From NCBI GenBank assembly GCA_015489595.1, contig WFZK01000008.1:1-53197 (forward strand): a stretch of DNA of 53,197 nt. Direction: 5' to 3'. The stretch is from Candidatus Dojkabacteria bacterium (GTDB lineage: Bacteria > Patescibacteriota > Dojkabacteria > GCA-002793355). The notes beneath the pieces were generated by a model. The model made no database searches and was not told where the DNA came from. It saw only the letters and a list, made by a program, of their open reading frames with translations. The translations under genes were made by a program, and so were the position numbers. Positions 24,374-35,127 of the stretch are shown here, one piece after another (within the stretch, counting starts at the first letter, position 1; each line of letters starts with the position of its first letter).

Positions 24374-25381
24374 ATGCTTGAACTGCGCTCGTATAGGAAT
24401 TTTTTAAGAAAGTTTGAGCTATTTTTGGAAGCTAGGATAAAGCAGCATTTCTTTCGAAGGTGTGTTGATCGTACGCTGTGTGAACAGGCCAAAGGGGCTA
24501 TCCTTAACGGGGGTAAAAGACTTAGACCTTATCTAGCTTATATTGCATATAATTTGCGTGCGCAGAAATGGACTTCTTCGATAGAGCTGCTAAGATTGGG
24601 AGTTGCACTTGAGGCCATCCATGCGTTTTTGCTGGTCCAGGACGATATTATGGACAGCGCCTATTTAAGGCGTGGCAACCCTGCAGTTTTTAGGGTGTTT
24701 GAAGAACAGTATCAAGATCTTCATACAGGAGAGTCGTTAGGAATTTTGACGAGCGATCTTATCTATAACTTTGCTTTAAAAACGCTTGCAGGAATGAAAA
24801 TTAAATTGCTAGAGGATGTGCTGGATTTTATCGACGATACCATAAACGGTCAGTATCTTGACGTTACCGCACCTTTTAAAGACTGGAGCGAGGAGACTGT
24901 GCTTAAGATCTATAAGCTAAAGACATCTAAATATTCTGTGATAATGCCACTTTCTTTGGGAGCGCGCCTTAGAGGTAGGAAACTTGATAGGTGGCTTGTT
25001 AAGTTTGCTGAGGCACTCGGGGTGGCATATCAGATCTCAGATGATATTATTGGAGCCTTTGGAGATAAGAAGCGTTCCGGCAAAGACGCTGATTCGGATT
25101 TTAAAGAGGGCAAAAGGACAATTTTGACGGTTTATGCCTATAATAAGCTTGAAGACCCTACAGAACTTACTAAGCTTTTAGGAGATCCAGAGTTAAGTGT
25201 AGTTGGCGCTGATAAGATTAGGGAGATCTTGAGAGAAACAGGAGCACTAGACTACGCTAAGGATTTGTTAGATAAATACTATGTGGATGCCTTAGAGAGC
25301 TTGAAAAGATCGAATATTAGTCCACGGGCTAAAGAAGAGCTAAGTCGGTTGGCAGAGTTTGTGGTAAAGAGAGATTATTAG
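24374..25381 (+). CDS. polyprenyl diphosphate synthase (trans-IPPS, GGPP/FPP synthase family)
   Basis: First Asp-rich motif LLVQDDIMDS and second motif YQISDDIIGAFGD. Confidence 0.85.
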   Translation: MLELRSYRNFLRKFELFLEARIKQHFFRRCVDRTLCEQAKGAILNGGKRLRPYLAYIAYNLRAQKWTSSIELLRLGVALEAIHAFLLVQDDIMDSAYLRRGNPAVFRVFEEQYQDLHTGESLGILTSDLIYNFALKTLAGMKIKLLEDVLDFIDDTINGQYLDVTAPFKDWSEETVLKIYKLKTSKYSVIMPLSLGARLRGRKLDRWLVKFAEALGVAYQISDDIIGAFGDKKRSGKDADSDFKEGKRTILTVYAYNKLEDPTELTKLLGDPELSVVGADKIREILRETGALDYAKDLLDKYYVDALESLKRSNISPRAKEELSRLAEFVVKRDY

Positions 25382-26974: not shown

Positions 26975-27046
26975 TCGCGGGGGGTGGATTCGAACCACCA
27001 ACCTCCGGGTTATGGGCCCGGCGAGCTGCCATTGCTCCACCCCGCA
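26975..27046 (-). tRNA. initiator tRNA-fMet, anticodon CAU
   Basis: The minus strand reads TGCGGGG-TG-GAGC-AATGGCA-GCTC-G-CCGGG-CCCATAA-CCCGG-AGGTT-GGTGG-TTCGAAT-CCACC-CCCCGCG-A. Initiator hallmarks are three G-C pairs at 29-31/39-41 and A11-U24. The 1-72 pair is a weak U-G. The sequence is very similar to E. coli tRNA-fMet. Confidence 0.85.
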
Positions 27047-27418: not shown

Positions 27419-28678
27419 ATGCCAGGTGTGGACACATTAATACTGCAAAACCCATGGTGGAAGACCTCACGTGTTCCTGAGGTGTTTTTGGGTAGAAGGA
27501 GAAAAGAATTCTATCGTAAGATACAGAAGTTTTTACCTCTCAGGCAGATCCTTTTAATCTATGGGCTAAGAAGAACAGGAAAAACAACTTTTTTATATCA
27601 GCTTATTCAGGATTTCTTAAATAGTGGTGTGGATCCGCGTCATATCTTGTATTTTTCGTTTGATGAAAAAGTGCTTAATTTAAAACAGCTTCTAAATACC
27701 TATGAGACTTATATTTTAAAACAGCCGATCACCGAAGAATCTAGAATCTACATGTTCCTAGATGAAATACAAAAGTTATCAGATTGGCAAGATCAGGTCA
27801 AACTCATCTATGATAGATTTCCTAAGATAAAGATATTTTTGTCTGGCTCAGCGTCTGTTAATCTTCAGAGAAATGTACGCGAGAGTTTAGCAGGTAGGGT
27901 ATTTGAGTTTGAGTTTCCTCCTTTAAGCTTTGGGGAATTTTTGGAATGGAAAAAAGCTAAAGTTGGAGATCTGCATAAGAAAGAGTTAAAGCTCCTGGCC
28001 CGTGAGTATGTGTTAAAAGGAGGGTTCCCGGAGATTATAGGTGAGCAAAGCAGCGAGGTCATTCGTATGTATCTTAAAAGTTCAGTACTTTATAAAATCT
28101 TGGAACAAGACTTACCTGCTGTATTTGGTTTGCGAGATCCTGAATTTTTAAAGGCTCTTGTTGAGTACCTTTTCTCCCAGCCCGGTAGCATTATAAATTA
28201 TGATTCTTTAAGCTCCCATTTCGGGCGAAGTAAGGTAACCGTGATTAATTATGTGTTTTATTTAAAGTATGCGTTACTAGTCCGTGAGGTTAGAAATTTT
28301 AGACCCAATTTGCTTCTTGCCTCTAGAAAAGGAAGGAAACTTTACCCTTACAATCCTGCTTTTTGTTTTGTCTATATTCCGGAGGACCAGTTTTTTAAGA
28401 GAGCTTTAGAAACAGCAGTGGCTTATGCGCTTTCGGCAAGGTACTATTACAGGAATCGTTTCGAGGTAGACTTCGTTTTAAGAAAACAGAATAGGCTTTA
28501 TCCGGTAGAGGTAAAAGCAGGTGAGCCTGATGTTAGCCAGGTAGCGAAGTTTTTGAAAAAGTTCGGAGGTAGTAAAGGTTATGTAGTGACAGAAGACTAT
28601 GAAGAGGTTTGGGGAAACATAGAGATTCTGCCTCTTTGGAAGGTGATGTTAGAAGGGGTGGGGGCGGAATTTGTTTAA
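27419..28678 (+). CDS. AAA+ ATPase with a C-terminal PD-(D/E)xK-like domain (DUF4143-type), paralog of 17972-19135
   Basis: Walker A LIYGLRRTGKTTFL, Walker B MFLDEIQ, and C-terminal FEVDFVLR...YPVEVKAG. Confidence 0.7.
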   Translation: MPGVDTLILQNPWWKTSRVPEVFLGRRRKEFYRKIQKFLPLRQILLIYGLRRTGKTTFLYQLIQDFLNSGVDPRHILYFSFDEKVLNLKQLLNTYETYILKQPITEESRIYMFLDEIQKLSDWQDQVKLIYDRFPKIKIFLSGSASVNLQRNVRESLAGRVFEFEFPPLSFGEFLEWKKAKVGDLHKKELKLLAREYVLKGGFPEIIGEQSSEVIRMYLKSSVLYKILEQDLPAVFGLRDPEFLKALVEYLFSQPGSIINYDSLSSHFGRSKVTVINYVFYLKYALLVREVRNFRPNLLLASRKGRKLYPYNPAFCFVYIPEDQFFKRALETAVAYALSARYYYRNRFEVDFVLRKQNRLYPVEVKAGEPDVSQVAKFLKKFGGSKGYVVTEDYEEVWGNIEILPLWKVMLEGVGAEFV

Positions 28679-28700
28679 ACAAATTCCGCCCCCACCCCTT
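28653..28700. repeat. 48-nt perfect palindrome centred on the ATPase stop codon
   Basis: aaggggtgggggcggaatttgttt|aaacaaattccgcccccacccctt. The TAA stop at 28676-28678 spans the centre. Confidence 0.9.
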
Positions 28701-28744: not shown

Positions 28745-29137
28745 TTACTTGTCTTTGTGTCCTACTGTCAGCAACTTAAGCCACATTTTGTATGGTGGAG
28801 GTGGAGACGGTGTCGGTGTAGGTGTTGTGTTGGGCAGCTGCTGTGTAAAGATTACGAGCTTCTCTCCGGGTTTGTAATAATTTAAGCTATTGCGCAGCTG
28901 TTGTTCTAGATAAAACGGCGATGTGACGTAATCTAGCTCATTCTGTTTTTTGATGATTTGGACATATTGCTTCTGAAGCTGTTTAAAACGCGGGCGATAA
29001 AGGCTTATCATGTAAAGGGAGGCTTTAATGCTTTTGTATGAATTGTAAATAAGTATGCTTGAGACGATTAGGAGTAGTAGCGTGGTTATAATGTTCTGGA
29101 AGCTGGGCTTGGTTTTAGGCTTTCTGGGCAAGACCAT
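28745..29137 (-). CDS. septum formation initiator family protein (FtsB/DivIC-like) with a P/T-rich tail
   Basis: N-terminal TM TTLLLLIVSSILIY, a coiled-coil segment, YLEQQLRNSLNYYKPGEKLVIF, and the tail TPTPTPSPPPP. Confidence 0.55.
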   Translation of the reverse strand: MVLPRKPKTKPSFQNIITTLLLLIVSSILIYNSYKSIKASLYMISLYRPRFKQLQKQYVQIIKKQNELDYVTSPFYLEQQLRNSLNYYKPGEKLVIFTQQLPNTTPTPTPSPPPPYKMWLKLLTVGHKDK

Positions 29138-32100
29138 AGGATTTTAGTTTTTCAAGTAACGTAAAGAGGGCATCAGGATAGTTGGCTTTGTCCATCTGGG
29201 TTTCTAGCCATGCCGTAAAATCGACTGAGATAAGGTCAGGGTAGTGTTTTTCAAGATAACTAAAAGTGGTTATGCCTTTTTTGGTTGGTATTAGTCTGCC
29301 TTTTCTGTCAATTATGTATCCACGCGTAAGGAGGGTTTTTATAATTATGGCATAGGTTGAAGGTCTGCCTAGGCCTAGCTCTTGCATCTTCTCGATTATT
29401 TGTGCGTATGTGTATGGTTTGTAACGAGGCTTGTAGTTTAGGCTCGCTGGGGCTTTAATTGTCTTTTGGTCGTTAAGGGCTGTGATCGGTTTGGGTTTAA
29501 GATATCCTATGGCGTAGAACCCTGGATCTATCACTTCTACTGTGACTTCGTCTTCGGCAAGTTTCTGGTTATTGTAATAGACTTGAATTTTTGCTTTTTT
29601 TATCTTTGCTTTTTGAGCTTGGGAGGTGATAAATCTTTGAAGAATTAGATTGTACAATTTAATGTGTTGGGAGCTTAACGGTAGTTCGTGGCTAAGCAGA
29701 GGTTTTGTAGGACGGATGCACTCGTGGGTGCCTGGAGTGCCGAAGGGGCGGGGCGCGGCGCGCGCGCCGCGCCCCGCCAGCTTAATAAGCTGGATGGCAA
29801 GGTTACGGCCCGCTTTGGACACGTACGTAGAATCGGTTCGGTGGTATGTGATGTAGCCTTGTTCGAATAGATCTTGGGCAAGCTCCATCGTTTTAGAGGA
29901 GGGGAACCTCAGTCTTCTAAATGCCTCCTTTAAAAGCTCGGCTGTGCTAAACGGCGGGGGTGGAGCTTGCTCCTTTTGGCTTACTCCTACAACTTTAATC
30001 TCTACTTCTTTTATAGGTTCGTTGGGGTTATCTTCAAGCCAGTATTGTAAGATTTGATCTTGTAGCTTAATCTCAAGTTGAGGATACTTCTGCTTTGTTT
30101 GTTCGAAACGCTGTATTATTAAACCTAGAACCGGGGTTTGCACACGACCGGCCGAAAGATTTTTCTCTTTGAACTGTTCCTGAAGTTTTTCGCTTAGAGC
30201 AAAGCCTACCCAACGGTCAGCTATTCGTCTGGTTAATTGCCCTGCAACTTTGGTTGTATCCGTATCGCGCAGGTTTTGGAGCTGTTTTAGGAACTCTGAT
30301 GGAGTTATCTCGTGCAGCTCCATGCGCTTTACATTTGGGTTAAGAGGGTGAAGATAAAGCTTAAGATCGTAGGCTATTTTTTCACCTTCAGTATCAGGAT
30401 CTGTGGTTATATAAACAGAATCAGTATAGTATGCTAAAAGCCTTAGCTCGTCGATTATGTCCTTCTTGGTTAGGAAGCGTTTGCTTCCACATATAGGACA
30501 CACGGTGGTTTCTGTATCTACTTTTCTGCCGCACTTTGCACACATTTTGATTGGACAGAACCAAGGGATAAGTTCGGGTTTAAGAAGGGTGCCGTAATAA
30601 CCAGGGTTGTGTTTAAGATCAGTTATATGGCCTGCTGAAGCGGTGATGATAAAAGTTTTGTTGCCTAAGCTGGCCTCGTAGGCATAAATGTTACCGTACT
30701 GTTTCTTTGCAGGTTTTGAGAAGAATCCCGCGAGAGTTTTTGCTTTGGTCGGAGACTCCACGATCACTAGAACTGTTTCTACTAGGTCAGGTAGATGTTT
30801 AGCTTTGGTCTGTTTTTTTAGTTTTTCTCTTTCTTTTAAGATTTTTTCAAGTATATTGTTAAGCTTCTCTTCAGATAGAGTGCTCATATCTTTAAACTCT
30901 GCGGCAAGGCCCGTTTTTCTAAGGTGTTCAAGCAGCAAGGATATAGGTTTTTCAGATGTGTCGATGATGCAGGAGAGTCCTAGGGTCAGACCGAATGGGC
31001 TTAGCCTGCTTGTCCTGCCTGATGCTTGGATGTATGTTTTTGTGTCTGGGATAAGTGCAAATCTTCTCTGGTCTTTCTTTACGCAAGGGAAAGGAAAGGT
31101 TGGTAAGGTGCAGTCTGTCTGTTTGAGCAGTGTGCTGATAAGGTCCGCTACTGGTTCTATCTTTTTGCGAAGCGTTGGGTTATTCTCTACAAATGTTTTA
31201 GAGAGATTAAGGTATGGTTCTAATTGTTTTCTTAGCTTAAGATAATCTTTAAGTGCTAAAACTCGAGCGCGGGTCAGTACTGAGGCTAGAAACAGGAGCC
31301 TTTTAGGCGAGAGGGTTACTTCAAGGGGTACTCTTAAGATAGGCGTTCCGACAAAAACAGCGTGCTTTATAACTTCTGGAAGGTTTACCCCTCTAACGAG
31401 TGGATTTTTGGGATTAGCTTTAGTTACCACTGCTGCATATTCTCCGTTTTCGAACTGTTCTAGTTTGTTTTCGAACTCATCATAGGTTAATACTGCGATG
31501 TTGTTGGTTTTAAGGACCTCTACGGTTTTATCAAAATCATACGGTTCAGATACGAATACAATTGTTCCTGAGTTAAGTTTTTTTACAATTCTGGCCGTTT
31601 CTTTATAGGGGTCCTGAGTGATCTTGTATAGGTCGATAATGTTGCGCAGAGTGGTGTTGGTTGATCCTAGCTCAAAGTTAAGTAGCTCTCTAAATAGCTT
31701 GATTTTGTTGGTTTTAGGGACAAAGGTCGCTGATGCTGAGATTATTTGGGTGTTTTTTCTCTTGATCTTTCTTTTTAGCTTTTCTGCTAGATCAAATTTA
31801 CCGTAAGCTTTAAGCTTAATTATCTTTTTGGCAAGATCAATATCATCGATAGAGAAACCAGCTAGCATTAAAACTTTTTCTATATTTGAAGCCTGTCTTA
31901 AAAGGGAGTCAGCATCGTCAATAAAGATAAATTGGAAATCACGCGGTAGCTTGTCAAAATTTTTGTGCATAAAGGCGGTGGTTGTGACTAGAATGTCTAT
32001 GTTTTCGGGGTGGTTAAGTAGAGCTTGTTTGTCTTGTTTTGTGAGAACTCCTAGGATCTTTTTACCTACGCGGTTGTACTTAGTTAGCCTTTCAGCCACC

Positions 32101-32495
32101 TGTTTTACCAATACCCTGGTGGGTACTATGTAGTATGTTTTTCTGATGGTAAAGAGGCTGTAGAGGATACCGAAGGTGGTTTTGCCAAGTCCGGTTGGAG
32201 CAAGGATAGCAAAGCTTTCATGGTTCAGGGCCCTTTTGACCCAATATTTAAGGAGTCTGAAAGGCTCCGCTTTTAGGGCGTCTTTAGCAAACTTTATGAA
32301 GTGATCTAGTCTCACTTCGAGTTCGCATATGTCATGTGTGGCGGGGATTGTTTGGCATAGATGCTTTTTTAATAACTCTGAGTATGAAAGTTCGTGTTTG
32401 TTGCAGGCCCCTTTTTCTAAGATCTCAGTGTTTTCCGCGGCTGAGCCGCAGACGGGACAGAGAAGATCGTAAAGGATTTTAGGCTCAGGTTGCAT
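29115..32495 (-). CDS. rgy: reverse gyrase (helicase-like domain fused to type IA topoisomerase)
   Basis: N-terminal Zn finger CPVCG...C. Helicase motifs are I (LAPTGLGKTTFG), II (FIDDADS) and VI (QASGRTSR). Toprim motif is VIVESPTKAKTL. There is an internal Zn ribbon (CAKCG...CPICG), the topo IA active site GYITYHRTDSTYVS, and THECIRPT. Length is 1126 aa. Confidence 0.9.
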   Translation of the reverse strand: MQPEPKILYDLLCPVCGSAAENTEILEKGACNKHELSYSELLKKHLCQTIPATHDICELEVRLDHFIKFAKDALKAEPFRLLKYWVKRALNHESFAILAPTGLGKTTFGILYSLFTIRKTYYIVPTRVLVKQVAERLTKYNRVGKKILGVLTKQDKQALLNHPENIDILVTTTAFMHKNFDKLPRDFQFIFIDDADSLLRQASNIEKVLMLAGFSIDDIDLAKKIIKLKAYGKFDLAEKLKRKIKRKNTQIISASATFVPKTNKIKLFRELLNFELGSTNTTLRNIIDLYKITQDPYKETARIVKKLNSGTIVFVSEPYDFDKTVEVLKTNNIAVLTYDEFENKLEQFENGEYAAVVTKANPKNPLVRGVNLPEVIKHAVFVGTPILRVPLEVTLSPKRLLFLASVLTRARVLALKDYLKLRKQLEPYLNLSKTFVENNPTLRKKIEPVADLISTLLKQTDCTLPTFPFPCVKKDQRRFALIPDTKTYIQASGRTSRLSPFGLTLGLSCIIDTSEKPISLLLEHLRKTGLAAEFKDMSTLSEEKLNNILEKILKEREKLKKQTKAKHLPDLVETVLVIVESPTKAKTLAGFFSKPAKKQYGNIYAYEASLGNKTFIITASAGHITDLKHNPGYYGTLLKPELIPWFCPIKMCAKCGRKVDTETTVCPICGSKRFLTKKDIIDELRLLAYYTDSVYITTDPDTEGEKIAYDLKLYLHPLNPNVKRMELHEITPSEFLKQLQNLRDTDTTKVAGQLTRRIADRWVGFALSEKLQEQFKEKNLSAGRVQTPVLGLIIQRFEQTKQKYPQLEIKLQDQILQYWLEDNPNEPIKEVEIKVVGVSQKEQAPPPPFSTAELLKEAFRRLRFPSSKTMELAQDLFEQGYITYHRTDSTYVSKAGRNLAIQLIKLAGRGARAAPRPFGTPGTHECIRPTKPLLSHELPLSSQHIKLYNLILQRFITSQAQKAKIKKAKIQVYYNNQKLAEDEVTVEVIDPGFYAIGYLKPKPITALNDQKTIKAPASLNYKPRYKPYTYAQIIEKMQELGLGRPSTYAIIIKTLLTRGYIIDRKGRLIPTKKGITTFSYLEKHYPDLISVDFTAWLETQMDKANYPDALFTLLEKLKSYGLAQKA
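29747..29778. repeat. 32-nt perfect G/C-only palindrome inside rgy, in frame
   Basis: ggcggggcgcggcgcg|cgcgccgcgccccgcc encodes AGRGARAAPRP just upstream of the conserved THECIRPT motif. Confidence 0.9.
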
Positions 32496-32500
32496 GTACT

Positions 32501-32506
32501 ATTATA
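32501..32506 (-). promoter_or_regulatory. -10 box TATAAT (minus strand), 5 nt before the rgy ATG
   Basis: The minus strand reads cgcTATAATagtacATG. Confidence 0.45.
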
Positions 32507-33967: not shown

Positions 33968-34846
33968 ATGCAGGAATACATCAATAAGTTTATTGACTAT
34001 TTAAAGCAGCAGGGCAAGAGTCAATACACCATCGTAGCCTATCGAAATGATCTTGGACAGTTAGTTAGATACCTTAAGGAGCAGAAAGACAAGCATGATG
34101 TCCAAAAAATTACGTTACAAGATCTTAAGGACTTTATAGAGTATCTAAAGACCGAGAAAGGTTTTAACTTAAAAACAATCTCTAGGAAGATAAATAGTAT
34201 AAGGAGCTTTTTTAAATATCTTGCCTCTACCGGGGTAATCGATGAGGTGTCTAATCCGGCTTTAAGGCTTGTTCATCCTAAGGTGGAGCCTTCTCCTCCT
34301 AGAGTCTTGTCTCAACTTGAGTATAGAGCTCTAAGAGATGCTAGCAGAAAAGATCCCAGGCTTTATGCCATTGTAGAGGTCTTACTCCAGACAGGTTTAA
34401 GGCTGGGAGAGCTACACAGATTAAAGGTTTCAGATATAAGGTATACCTCGAGTGGTAAACCTTATCTTTATATAGAAGCTTATGGGACCCATCCAGCACG
34501 AAAGGTGCCTTTAAATCAAGCGGCGTATGAAGCCTTAAAAACTTATATAGAGAAGTACAGGCCTGAACCTCAGCCTGGTGTAGAGAACATCTTTATTACC
34601 AAAACTGGCCGCCCTATTCCAATGAGAAATATCAGAGCTATGATAAAACGCGCCTTTAAGGCAGCTGGTATTAAGAAGGCTACAGTAAATGATATCAGGA
34701 ATACGTTTATTGTTTATCACCTGGCCCGCGGTATGAATCCCTTGACATTGGCAAAGATCGTGGGCCACAGGAGAATTTCTACAACCGAGAAATATTTAGC
34801 TTTCGTTAAATCTAAACCAGAGAAGACCGGCCTGCAGGAACTGTAG
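33968..34846 (+). CDS. tyrosine recombinase, XerC/XerD family
   Basis: An N-terminal SAM-like domain (SQYTIVAYRNDLGQLVRYL), LLQTGLRLGEL and GHRRISTTEKYL, in a 292-aa protein. Confidence 0.8.
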   Translation: MQEYINKFIDYLKQQGKSQYTIVAYRNDLGQLVRYLKEQKDKHDVQKITLQDLKDFIEYLKTEKGFNLKTISRKINSIRSFFKYLASTGVIDEVSNPALRLVHPKVEPSPPRVLSQLEYRALRDASRKDPRLYAIVEVLLQTGLRLGELHRLKVSDIRYTSSGKPYLYIEAYGTHPARKVPLNQAAYEALKTYIEKYRPEPQPGVENIFITKTGRPIPMRNIRAMIKRAFKAAGIKKATVNDIRNTFIVYHLARGMNPLTLAKIVGHRRISTTEKYLAFVKSKPEKTGLQEL

Positions 34847-35053: not shown

Positions 35054-35127
35054 GGTGCCGTAGCTCAACTGGTGAGAGCGCGGGATTCATAACCCCGAGG
35101 TTGGCGGTTCGAGTCCGCCCGGCACCA
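35054..35127 (+). tRNA. elongator tRNA-Met, anticodon CAU (a lysidine-type tRNA-Ile2 cannot be excluded from sequence alone)
   Basis: Acceptor GGTGCCG/CGGCACC, D arm GCTC-AACTGGTGA-GAGC, anticodon arm CGGGA-TTCATAA-CCCCG (A31-C39 mismatch), T arm GGCGG-TTCGAGT-CCGCC, discriminator A. Confidence 0.8.

Follow-up and report, generated by a model that had tools for sequence, protein, structure and literature searches.

An intact reverse gyrase gene, probably acquired horizontally, in the small genome of a Patescibacterium that looks thermophilic

What is a reverse gyrase gene doing in the 825-kb genome of a bacterium whose close relatives are mesophilic? The enzyme occurs in all hyperthermophiles and in some thermophiles, is absent from mesophiles, and has been regarded as the sole protein tied to life at high temperature (Catchpole & Forterre 2019, PMC6878951). 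The gene in question, rgy, occupies positions 29115..32495 on the minus strand of a 53,197-nt stretch of DNA (the window), which is the whole of contig C8 of the metagenome-assembled genome (MAG) G000. That genome comes in 47 contigs and is estimated to be 93.5% complete and 1.7% contaminated; its size, together with the bacterial housekeeping genes that surround rgy in the window (MurJ, QueG, KsgA, FtsH, XerD, ArgRS, GatA/B), bears out the inference of a first-pass annotation of the window that the host is a Patescibacteria-like bacterium with a reduced genome. We consider it highly probable that rgy encodes a working reverse gyrase, acquired horizontally and by now a long-standing chromosomal resident of a thermophilic Patescibacterium.

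Is the gene what it appears to be? The first-pass annotation had placed all modules of a reverse gyrase in one open reading frame (ORF), and had named a search with the TIGR01054 hidden Markov model and a check for lost helicase or topoisomerase catalytic residues as ways of testing that claim. The gene is a single stop-free ORF with an ATG start, and its 1126-residue product, P0001, scores 993.1 bits on TIGR01054, where the cut-off is 471.7, in one stretch that runs from model position 4 to 1151 of 1172 and takes in both halves of the enzyme. The superfamily 2 (SF2) helicase-like module (30816..32318, minus strand; residues ~60-560) is matched by the Pfam families DEAD (1.1e-15) and ResIII and carries motifs I (APTGLGKT, 99-106), II (DDAD, 193-196), III (SAT, 255-257) and VI (QASGRTSR, 490-497). 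The Toprim and type IA topoisomerase module (29181..30779, minus strand; residues 573-1105) is matched by Toprim (1.9e-18) and Topoisom_bac (1.5e-75) and carries the Toprim glutamate E580 and D699-x-D701-x-E703 within DPDTEGE (699-705). The codon of the catalytic tyrosine, Y884, lies at 29844..29846 (minus strand) in an ITYHRTDS motif that aligns with the same motif of the Archaeoglobus fulgidus enzyme.

None of the catalytic residues has been lost. Across an alignment of 61 diverse reverse gyrases, P0001 retains every invariant column, both in the helicase half (A99, P100, G102, G104, K105, D193, D194, T257, Q490, G493, R494, S496 and R497) and in the topoisomerase half (E580, D699-P-D701-x-E703 and Y884-HRTD). 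It also aligns end to end with PDB entries 1GL9 (A. fulgidus) and 4DDT (Thermotoga maritima). The AlphaFold2 model of P0001 has a predicted local distance difference test score (pLDDT) of 89.1 and a predicted template modelling score (pTM) of 0.86, and a Foldseek comparison over some 1100-1170 columns gives template modelling (TM) scores of 0.78-0.80 to 7FSF, 4DDT and 1GL9, in keeping with the padlock arrangement of helicase and topoisomerase modules in the solved enzymes. With plain type IA topoisomerases the match is confined to the C-terminal half. The least confident part of the model (pLDDT 66-79) is a mainly helical insert of some 80 residues (~392-470) in the position of the latch, the element of the second RecA-like domain that couples ATPase to strand passage in reverse gyrases. 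Model search, motifs and predicted structure thus agree with the first-pass reading of the ORF and confirm P0001, as far as its sequence can tell, as a full-length reverse gyrase with intact catalytic residues. Comparison with two alleles whose proteins are 92.5% identical to P0001 gives a ratio of nonsynonymous to synonymous substitution rates (dN/dS) of 0.089-0.094 at dS 0.43, and a ratio of 0.09 at that divergence speaks for strong purifying selection on rgy.

The zinc fingers are less regular. The N-terminal finger that had been claimed for P0001 can be recognised (32394..32459, minus strand), but as a variant: alignment columns place C13-x2-C16 ... C31-x2-H34 at the four putative ligand positions, so that it has three Cys and a His rather than the canonical four Cys found in 37 of the 61 reverse gyrases. 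The second finger, inside the Toprim domain (30489..30542, minus strand), has all four of its Cys (C652, C655, C666 and C669) and draws weak Pfam zinc-ribbon matches at residues 650-672. Pfam zf_Rg (PF17915) was detected neither in P0001 nor in the clade of Patescibacteria reverse gyrases to which, as described below, P0001 is related. In that clade the second and fourth Cys of the first finger are absent from all 23 sampled members; Cys-x2-Asp ... Cys-x2-Asp prevails, and in 3 of the 23 the fourth residue is His.

Might such departures mark a relic, that is, a gene which no longer introduces positive supercoils, persists as a helicase or DNA chaperone or is simply decaying, and need not imply a thermophilic host? 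The off-canonical first finger, the low model confidence of the latch region and the undetected PF17915 would all be at home in such a scenario, but a relic should hardly combine a full set of catalytic and ATPase residues with a whole-gene dN/dS of 0.09 and with a host whose rRNA, tRNAs and proteome bear heat signatures (see below), and we regard it as very unlikely. If P0001 is instead a working reverse gyrase, family membership predicts how it would act. The N-terminal helicase-like module would bind and hydrolyse ATP (Walker A K105, DDAD) and open a short duplex; the type IA module would cleave one strand via a 5'-phosphotyrosine on Y884, with E580 and D699/D701 holding Mg2+; and the other strand would be passed and the break resealed, raising the linking number. 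The cell would in this way remove negative or add positive supercoils and keep its DNA annealed when hot, with reverse gyrase working alongside GyrA, GyrB and TopA, all three of which G000 also encodes, as in Thermotoga. The GyrA of G000 (C4:1694-4474) is one 957-aa frame that the gyrA model matches in two pieces about 100 residues apart, near model position 195, which suggests that its N-terminal domain carries an insertion.

Does rgy belong to the genome in which it was assembled? Imagine that the rgy stretch, or the contig as a whole, had come from a co-occurring thermophile such as a member of the Aquificota: in a 47-contig MAG from a community with many rgy-bearing thermophiles (many vent MAGs carry rgy) a binning or assembly error of this kind would be conceivable, and the first-pass annotation had recommended checking the contig for chimerism, among other things by its tetranucleotide profile. 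On that count rgy is no outlier, its tetranucleotide correlation falling at the 22nd percentile of genome windows. Its G+C content (GC) of 42.5% compares with 41.6 +/- 2.6 for the genome and its plus-strand GC skew of 0.181 with 0.185 for the contig, and codon use and promoter grammar likewise agree with the rest of the genome. The same junctions recur in four assemblies from different samples. A protein identical to P0001 is encoded on a 31-kb contig of GCA_027052685.1 that shares the gene order and, across 9.4 kb, 99.77% identity, and the two alleles mentioned above, at dS 0.43, lie in GCA_027002255.1 and ENA ERZ23491094; in all three of these further assemblies the order is xerD, a 348-aa ORF, rgy and an ftsB-like gene. 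Both flanks are syntenic with relatives from the same Dojkabacteria family, and the nearest relatives of the gene themselves reside in Patescibacteria genomes of 0.6-0.7 Mb. The gene is native to this chromosome and the contig is not chimeric; an artefact looks already refuted, and we give it next to no credence. Because composition, codon use and a TATAAT-N5-ATG promoter are all host-like, we further take rgy to have been resident for a long time.

Codon use needs one qualification. Every contig of G000 has a strong skew (|GC skew| of 0.1-0.24 on 38 of the 47), and rgy is a lagging-strand gene. On the skewed contigs about 72% of ORFs are co-oriented with the G-rich strand (361 vs 140), and skew and co-orientation of this strength entail a marked difference in codon use between the strands. 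Among long genes rgy sits at the 96th percentile of codon-use deviation, which might have been taken for foreignness, but the signal is an effect of strand skew and vanishes when rgy is set against other lagging-strand genes.

Is the host thermophilic, as a reverse gyrase would imply? We judged heat signatures against relatives, not against absolute thresholds. The GC of 16S rRNA is 60.4% in G000 and 61.7% in G003, the only other rgy carrier that we found in the class and a member of the same family, compared with 44.2-52.2% in 25 other relatives, including five members of that family at 51.0-52.2%. The 44 tRNAs of G000 have a mean GC of 63.7% in a genome of 42%, and acceptor stems such as GGGCGCG (tRNA-Ile) and GGGGGC (tRNA-Asp) match the first-pass description of these stems as almost pure G-C. 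Proteome composition follows suit, with an IVYWREL fraction of 0.425 and a charged-minus-polar value of 6.4 in G000 and of 0.442 and 9.2 in G003, the most thermophile-like proteome among those sampled; mesophilic family members have values of 0.381-0.409 and -1.6 to 0.8, and G005 (0.413) and G006 (0.422) have intermediate IVYWREL fractions. By a regression attributed to Zeldovich et al. (2007), an IVYWREL of 0.425 would translate into roughly 63 °C for G000. The clearest heat signatures are therefore those of the two rgy-carrying genomes, which 16S rRNA, tRNA and proteome indices set apart from their mesophilic kin, in keeping with the thermal adaptation proposed by the first-pass annotation, and by these proxies the host of G000 looks thermophilic. 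The 16S GC of three organisms that carry members of the Patescibacteria reverse gyrase clade, with flanking GC of ~25-30%, is raised as well, to 49.8-57.3%, if less sharply than in G000.

Where this organism lives can be approached through its accessions. The prefixes of related contigs fall inside a series of vent MAGs (PMC9793634), in whose supplement the bin S143_metabat1_scaf2bin.068 is placed in Dojkabacteria, order SC72, family GCA-002793355. Going by accession order, the host probably belongs to the class Dojkabacteria and probably came from deep-sea hydrothermal deposits. A search with FtsH was uninformative on taxonomy, with both Chloroflexota and Patescibacteria among its top matches (44-51% identity). 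The organism, whose genome is 0.8 Mb, is probably symbiotic and host-dependent.

How, then, did a heat-associated gene come to be in a largely mesophilic family? Only 2 of 221 genomes of the class, G000 and G003, have an rgy that exceeds the TIGR01054 cut-off, and no further one was found above it among 400 genomes sampled across the phylum. In a search space of 5.8 billion proteins, the nearest relatives of P0001 are 38-44% identical to it, and several of them are named as reverse gyrases of Candidatus Parcubacteria or Patescibacteria group bacteria; at least 11 GTDB species genomes, 0.6-0.7 Mb in size, carry the related clade. Among Patescibacteria of hot habitats the "notable marker" of the first-pass annotation is thus nothing unusual. 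The phylogeny that the annotation had called for (IQ-TREE, LG+C20 PMSF) makes P0001 sister to the enzymes of Paceibacter, Minisyncoccia and other Patescibacteria, with a support of 99 in the Shimodaira-Hasegawa-like approximate likelihood ratio test (SH-aLRT). The reverse gyrase of G003 groups in the same tree with Hydrogenothermaceae enzymes (SH-aLRT 100), and a single clade of P0001 and the G003 protein is rejected (log-likelihood difference 139.8; approximately unbiased (AU) test, p = 1e-57). The AU test used LG+F+G4 on 28 rows, a model more prone to long-branch artefacts, but its outcome is far from marginal. G000 and G003 are nonetheless sisters on 16S rRNA, and at the protein level, too, the two resemble each other more than they resemble the four relatives G001, G002, G004 and G007. 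G005 is closer still to G000 and, at a median protein identity of 60%, its closest species-level relative.

Two rgy genes that belong to the Patescibacteria clade come from MAGs with other labels: L015 (JAUQQL010000009.1) is filed under Thermodesulfobacteriota and L023 (DAOTYJ010000137.1) under Dehalococcoidia. L015 has a near-identical counterpart, L014, in Patescibacteria, whereas L023 is interrupted by a TAG and comes from the end of a contig in a bin of 2.8 Mb; both are likely to be mislabelled or mis-binned.

The genomic site itself is informative. In G001, G002, G004 and G007 it is empty: the ftsB-like gene (-) and xerD (+) stand back to back, followed by ftsH (+). In G000 a 4.8-kb block between ftsB-like and xerD holds rgy and one further gene, P0280. 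Given the empty site in four relatives and the gene tree, we read the block as a horizontal insertion, favouring insertion in G000 over deletion in its kin, and so lend support to the transfer that the first-pass annotation had suspected; as the gene is fully ameliorated, the transfer must be old. Under this scenario rgy would have arrived within the 4.8-kb block from a donor lineage related to the Patescibacteria-specific reverse gyrase clade, and would since have taken on host composition, a leaderless promoter of the host type and read-through into ftsB-like.

Some of the same observations could be accommodated by vertical descent. Suppose that the ancestor of the family, or of a more inclusive group of Patescibacteria, was a thermophile that already possessed an rgy of this type, and that the gene was then cleanly deleted in the mesophiles and replaced in the lineage of G003. 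P0001 would then be expected to be sister to, rather than within, the Patescibacteria clade and to be fully ameliorated, as it is; its first finger, with three Cys and a His, moreover falls between the canonical set of four Cys and the Cys-Asp-Cys-Asp of that clade, and outgroups do not polarise the indel. What such a history struggles to explain is why so few genomes of the class retain rgy, why ftsB-like and xerD are directly back to back in four mesophilic kin, and why the sister thermophile G003 has a different type of reverse gyrase at a non-syntenic locus. It also requires more events than two gains, and we consider it unlikely.

Several points should be set on the other side of the scale from an old horizontal gain in a thermophilic host. 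All indices of temperature used here are proxies, and G029, an unrelated member of the class without rgy, also has a high IVYWREL (from a small sample). The branch leading to P0001 is long (1.36), so that the support value overstates how well its exact sister group is known. No helicase half of rgy was found in G005, an assembly that is only 88% complete and in 190 contigs. The polarity of the indel is assigned by parsimony; outgroup families lack a consistent ftsB-like/xerD or xerD/ftsH adjacency. Habitat and class, finally, are read from accession-series adjacency and a supplementary tree label. Separately, the FtsH-like and the TopA-like matches in G005 each form a pair whose members differ in identity (C120 and C146; C129 and C75), which may represent two mixed populations or paralogues.

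How is the gene embedded in its surroundings? A -10 hexamer, TATAAT, at 32501..32506 (minus strand) lies 5 nt upstream of the rgy ATG, with no Shine-Dalgarno sequence, an arrangement that would make it a promoter of the leaderless type. The same spacing, TATAAT-N5-ATG, precedes 99 of the genome's 623 longest-ORF starts, compared with 0.4% of random positions. At its other end rgy runs into a gene for a 130-aa FtsB/DivIC-like membrane protein (28745..29137, minus strand), identified by orthologues and a weak Pfam DivIC match (PF04977, E 7.6e-4, 19.7 bits, below the cut-off of 28.9). The orthologues, 44-57% identical, adjoin xerD in the four relatives with the empty site and have in common a membrane helix and a KKxNELDY...PGEKL block. 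The 23-nt overlap between the 3' end of rgy and this gene, noted in the first-pass annotation, is real by the ORF coordinates, but shrinks to 17 nt if a TTG two codons in is the start; no start codon other than that TTG precedes the membrane helix. The overlap is conserved in the diverged alleles, and compared with its kin the protein has an N-terminal extension of ~10 aa that is encoded across the insert junction. The two genes are probably co-transcribed.

Past the ftsB-like stop, between convergent genes, a perfect G+C-rich palindrome (28653..28698, on neither strand in particular; a 46-nt inverted self-match) is likely to be a repeat hairpin or a terminator. Hairpin repeats beside rgy have only 4 short matches on other contigs and offer weak support for native DNA. 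On the far side of the insert, and outside it, lies the other flank of the insertion site, a gene for an xerD-type tyrosine recombinase (33968..34846, plus strand) that scores below the cut-offs of NCBIfam XerA, XerD and XerC alike; it is 56-59% identical to, and syntenic with ftsH in, the four relatives. Two tRNA-Met(CAU) genes, at 26975-27046 (-) and 35054-35127 (+), bracket a variable region that comprises an AAA_14/DUF4143 gene, ftsB-like, rgy, P0280 and xerD, and the genes to the left of ftsB-like (KsgA, a 253-aa ORF and AAA_14) are likewise non-syntenic with the four relatives examined.

The companion of rgy in the insert, P0280 (32701..33747, plus strand), is the 348-aa ORF already mentioned. 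It has a GxGxxG motif at residues 7-12, a GDAGG-like motif towards the C-terminus and a weak match to Pfam DAO, and scores 22.3 bits (9e-5) on the geranylgeranyl reductase family TIGR02032, well short of the cut-off of 158.8 for membership; its sequence lets us class it no further than as a putative oxidoreductase dependent on flavin adenine dinucleotide (FAD) or NAD(P). P0280 adjoins rgy in all four assemblies. It was not found in any of 10 family genomes, and no copy turned up next to rgy when 81 further rgy loci were searched. It may saturate lipids and have been imported together with rgy. A polyprenyl diphosphate synthase gene is located at 24374-25381, 7 kb from P0280.

These elements invite a bolder account, which we put forward tentatively and consider rather doubtful as it stands. 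Within one Dojkabacteria family, two heat-adapted sister lineages may have recruited reverse gyrase independently and from different donors, one related to the Patescibacteria clade and the other of Hydrogenothermaceae type, with the copy in G000 travelling in a two-gene cassette that pairs DNA topology with lipid saturation by an FAD-dependent geranylgeranyl-reductase-like enzyme, landing by xerD and capturing ftsB-like into its transcript. If this were true, gain of rgy would be a recurrent and perhaps rate-limiting step for ultra-small symbionts that follow their hosts into heat.

What does the locus add to existing knowledge? The main phylogenetic study of reverse gyrase leaves Patescibacteria unmentioned (PMC6878951), a Kerguelen hot-spring study has a Paceibacteria MAG among its rgy carriers without comment, and the description of 154 Patescibacteria MAGs, Dojkabacteria included, does not mention reverse gyrase (PMC9793634). 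In the literature searched we found no discussion of the enzyme in Patescibacteria. Reverse gyrases from this group are already annotated in public records, and P0001 illustrates a known kind well; knowledge of the enzyme itself is unchanged by it. New are the host class, the basal position combined with an intermediate zinc finger, and a well-defined insertion together with evidence for a second acquisition in the sister lineage. The presence of reverse gyrase in Patescibacteria is thereby extended to a further class, and the Patescibacteria-specific clade gains a basal sequence. For uncultured organisms a reverse gyrase gene is a cheap temperature call, and in this case three independent genome-wide signals point the same way, in an organism whose close relatives are mesophilic. 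The locus offers a clean and datable case of heat adaptation in a probably host-dependent bacterium with a reduced genome: a single small insertion, at a defined site, that was fully domesticated, and a separate acquisition of rgy by the sister lineage.

Comparison with characterised and related systems puts P0001 in perspective. The enzymes of T. maritima (PDB 4DDT, 4DDU, 7FSF) and A. fulgidus (1GKU, 1GL9) are single polypeptides with the same SF2 helicase-like and Toprim/type IA architecture and, like P0001, have motifs I, II, III and VI, the Toprim acidic residues, the tyrosine and the second zinc finger. Identity to these enzymes is only 30-32%, with a full-length TM score of 0.78-0.80; the first finger of P0001 is Cys-Cys-Cys-His where theirs has four Cys, and its latch region differs in being a mainly helical insert of lower model confidence. 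Their hosts, moreover, are free-living hyperthermophiles, whereas that of P0001 is a probably symbiotic Patescibacterium of 0.8 Mb. Closer to home, the G003 enzyme (P0262, 1201 aa; L006:1489-5094, G003:C24) comes from the same bacterial family and is also full-length (1120 bits), but lacks the second zinc finger, is 34% identical to P0001 and belongs with the enzymes of Hydrogenothermaceae (Aquificota); its gene lies close to the end of a contig, in a non-syntenic position. Members of the Patescibacteria clade (among them those of Ca. Paceibacter KUB_Bin06, Minisyncoccia KM4337-23, SKYB72, SRBZ-1.bins.49 and ERB_C1_2) resemble P0001 in the tiny genomes of their hosts (0.6-0.7 Mb), in the conserved second finger and in the undetected PF17915. 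P0001 falls outside that clade on its long branch, however, has C16 and H34 where the clade has Asp16 and Asp34, and belongs to a host of another class: the 221 genomes screened from the class of G000 include no host of the clade. In one branch of the clade (L014, L015, L020, L021 and L022; ~8.4-10.0 kb) argS directly follows rgy, whereas in G000 that place is taken by ftsB-like; and where the clade comes from hot springs, P0001 probably comes from a deep-sea vent.

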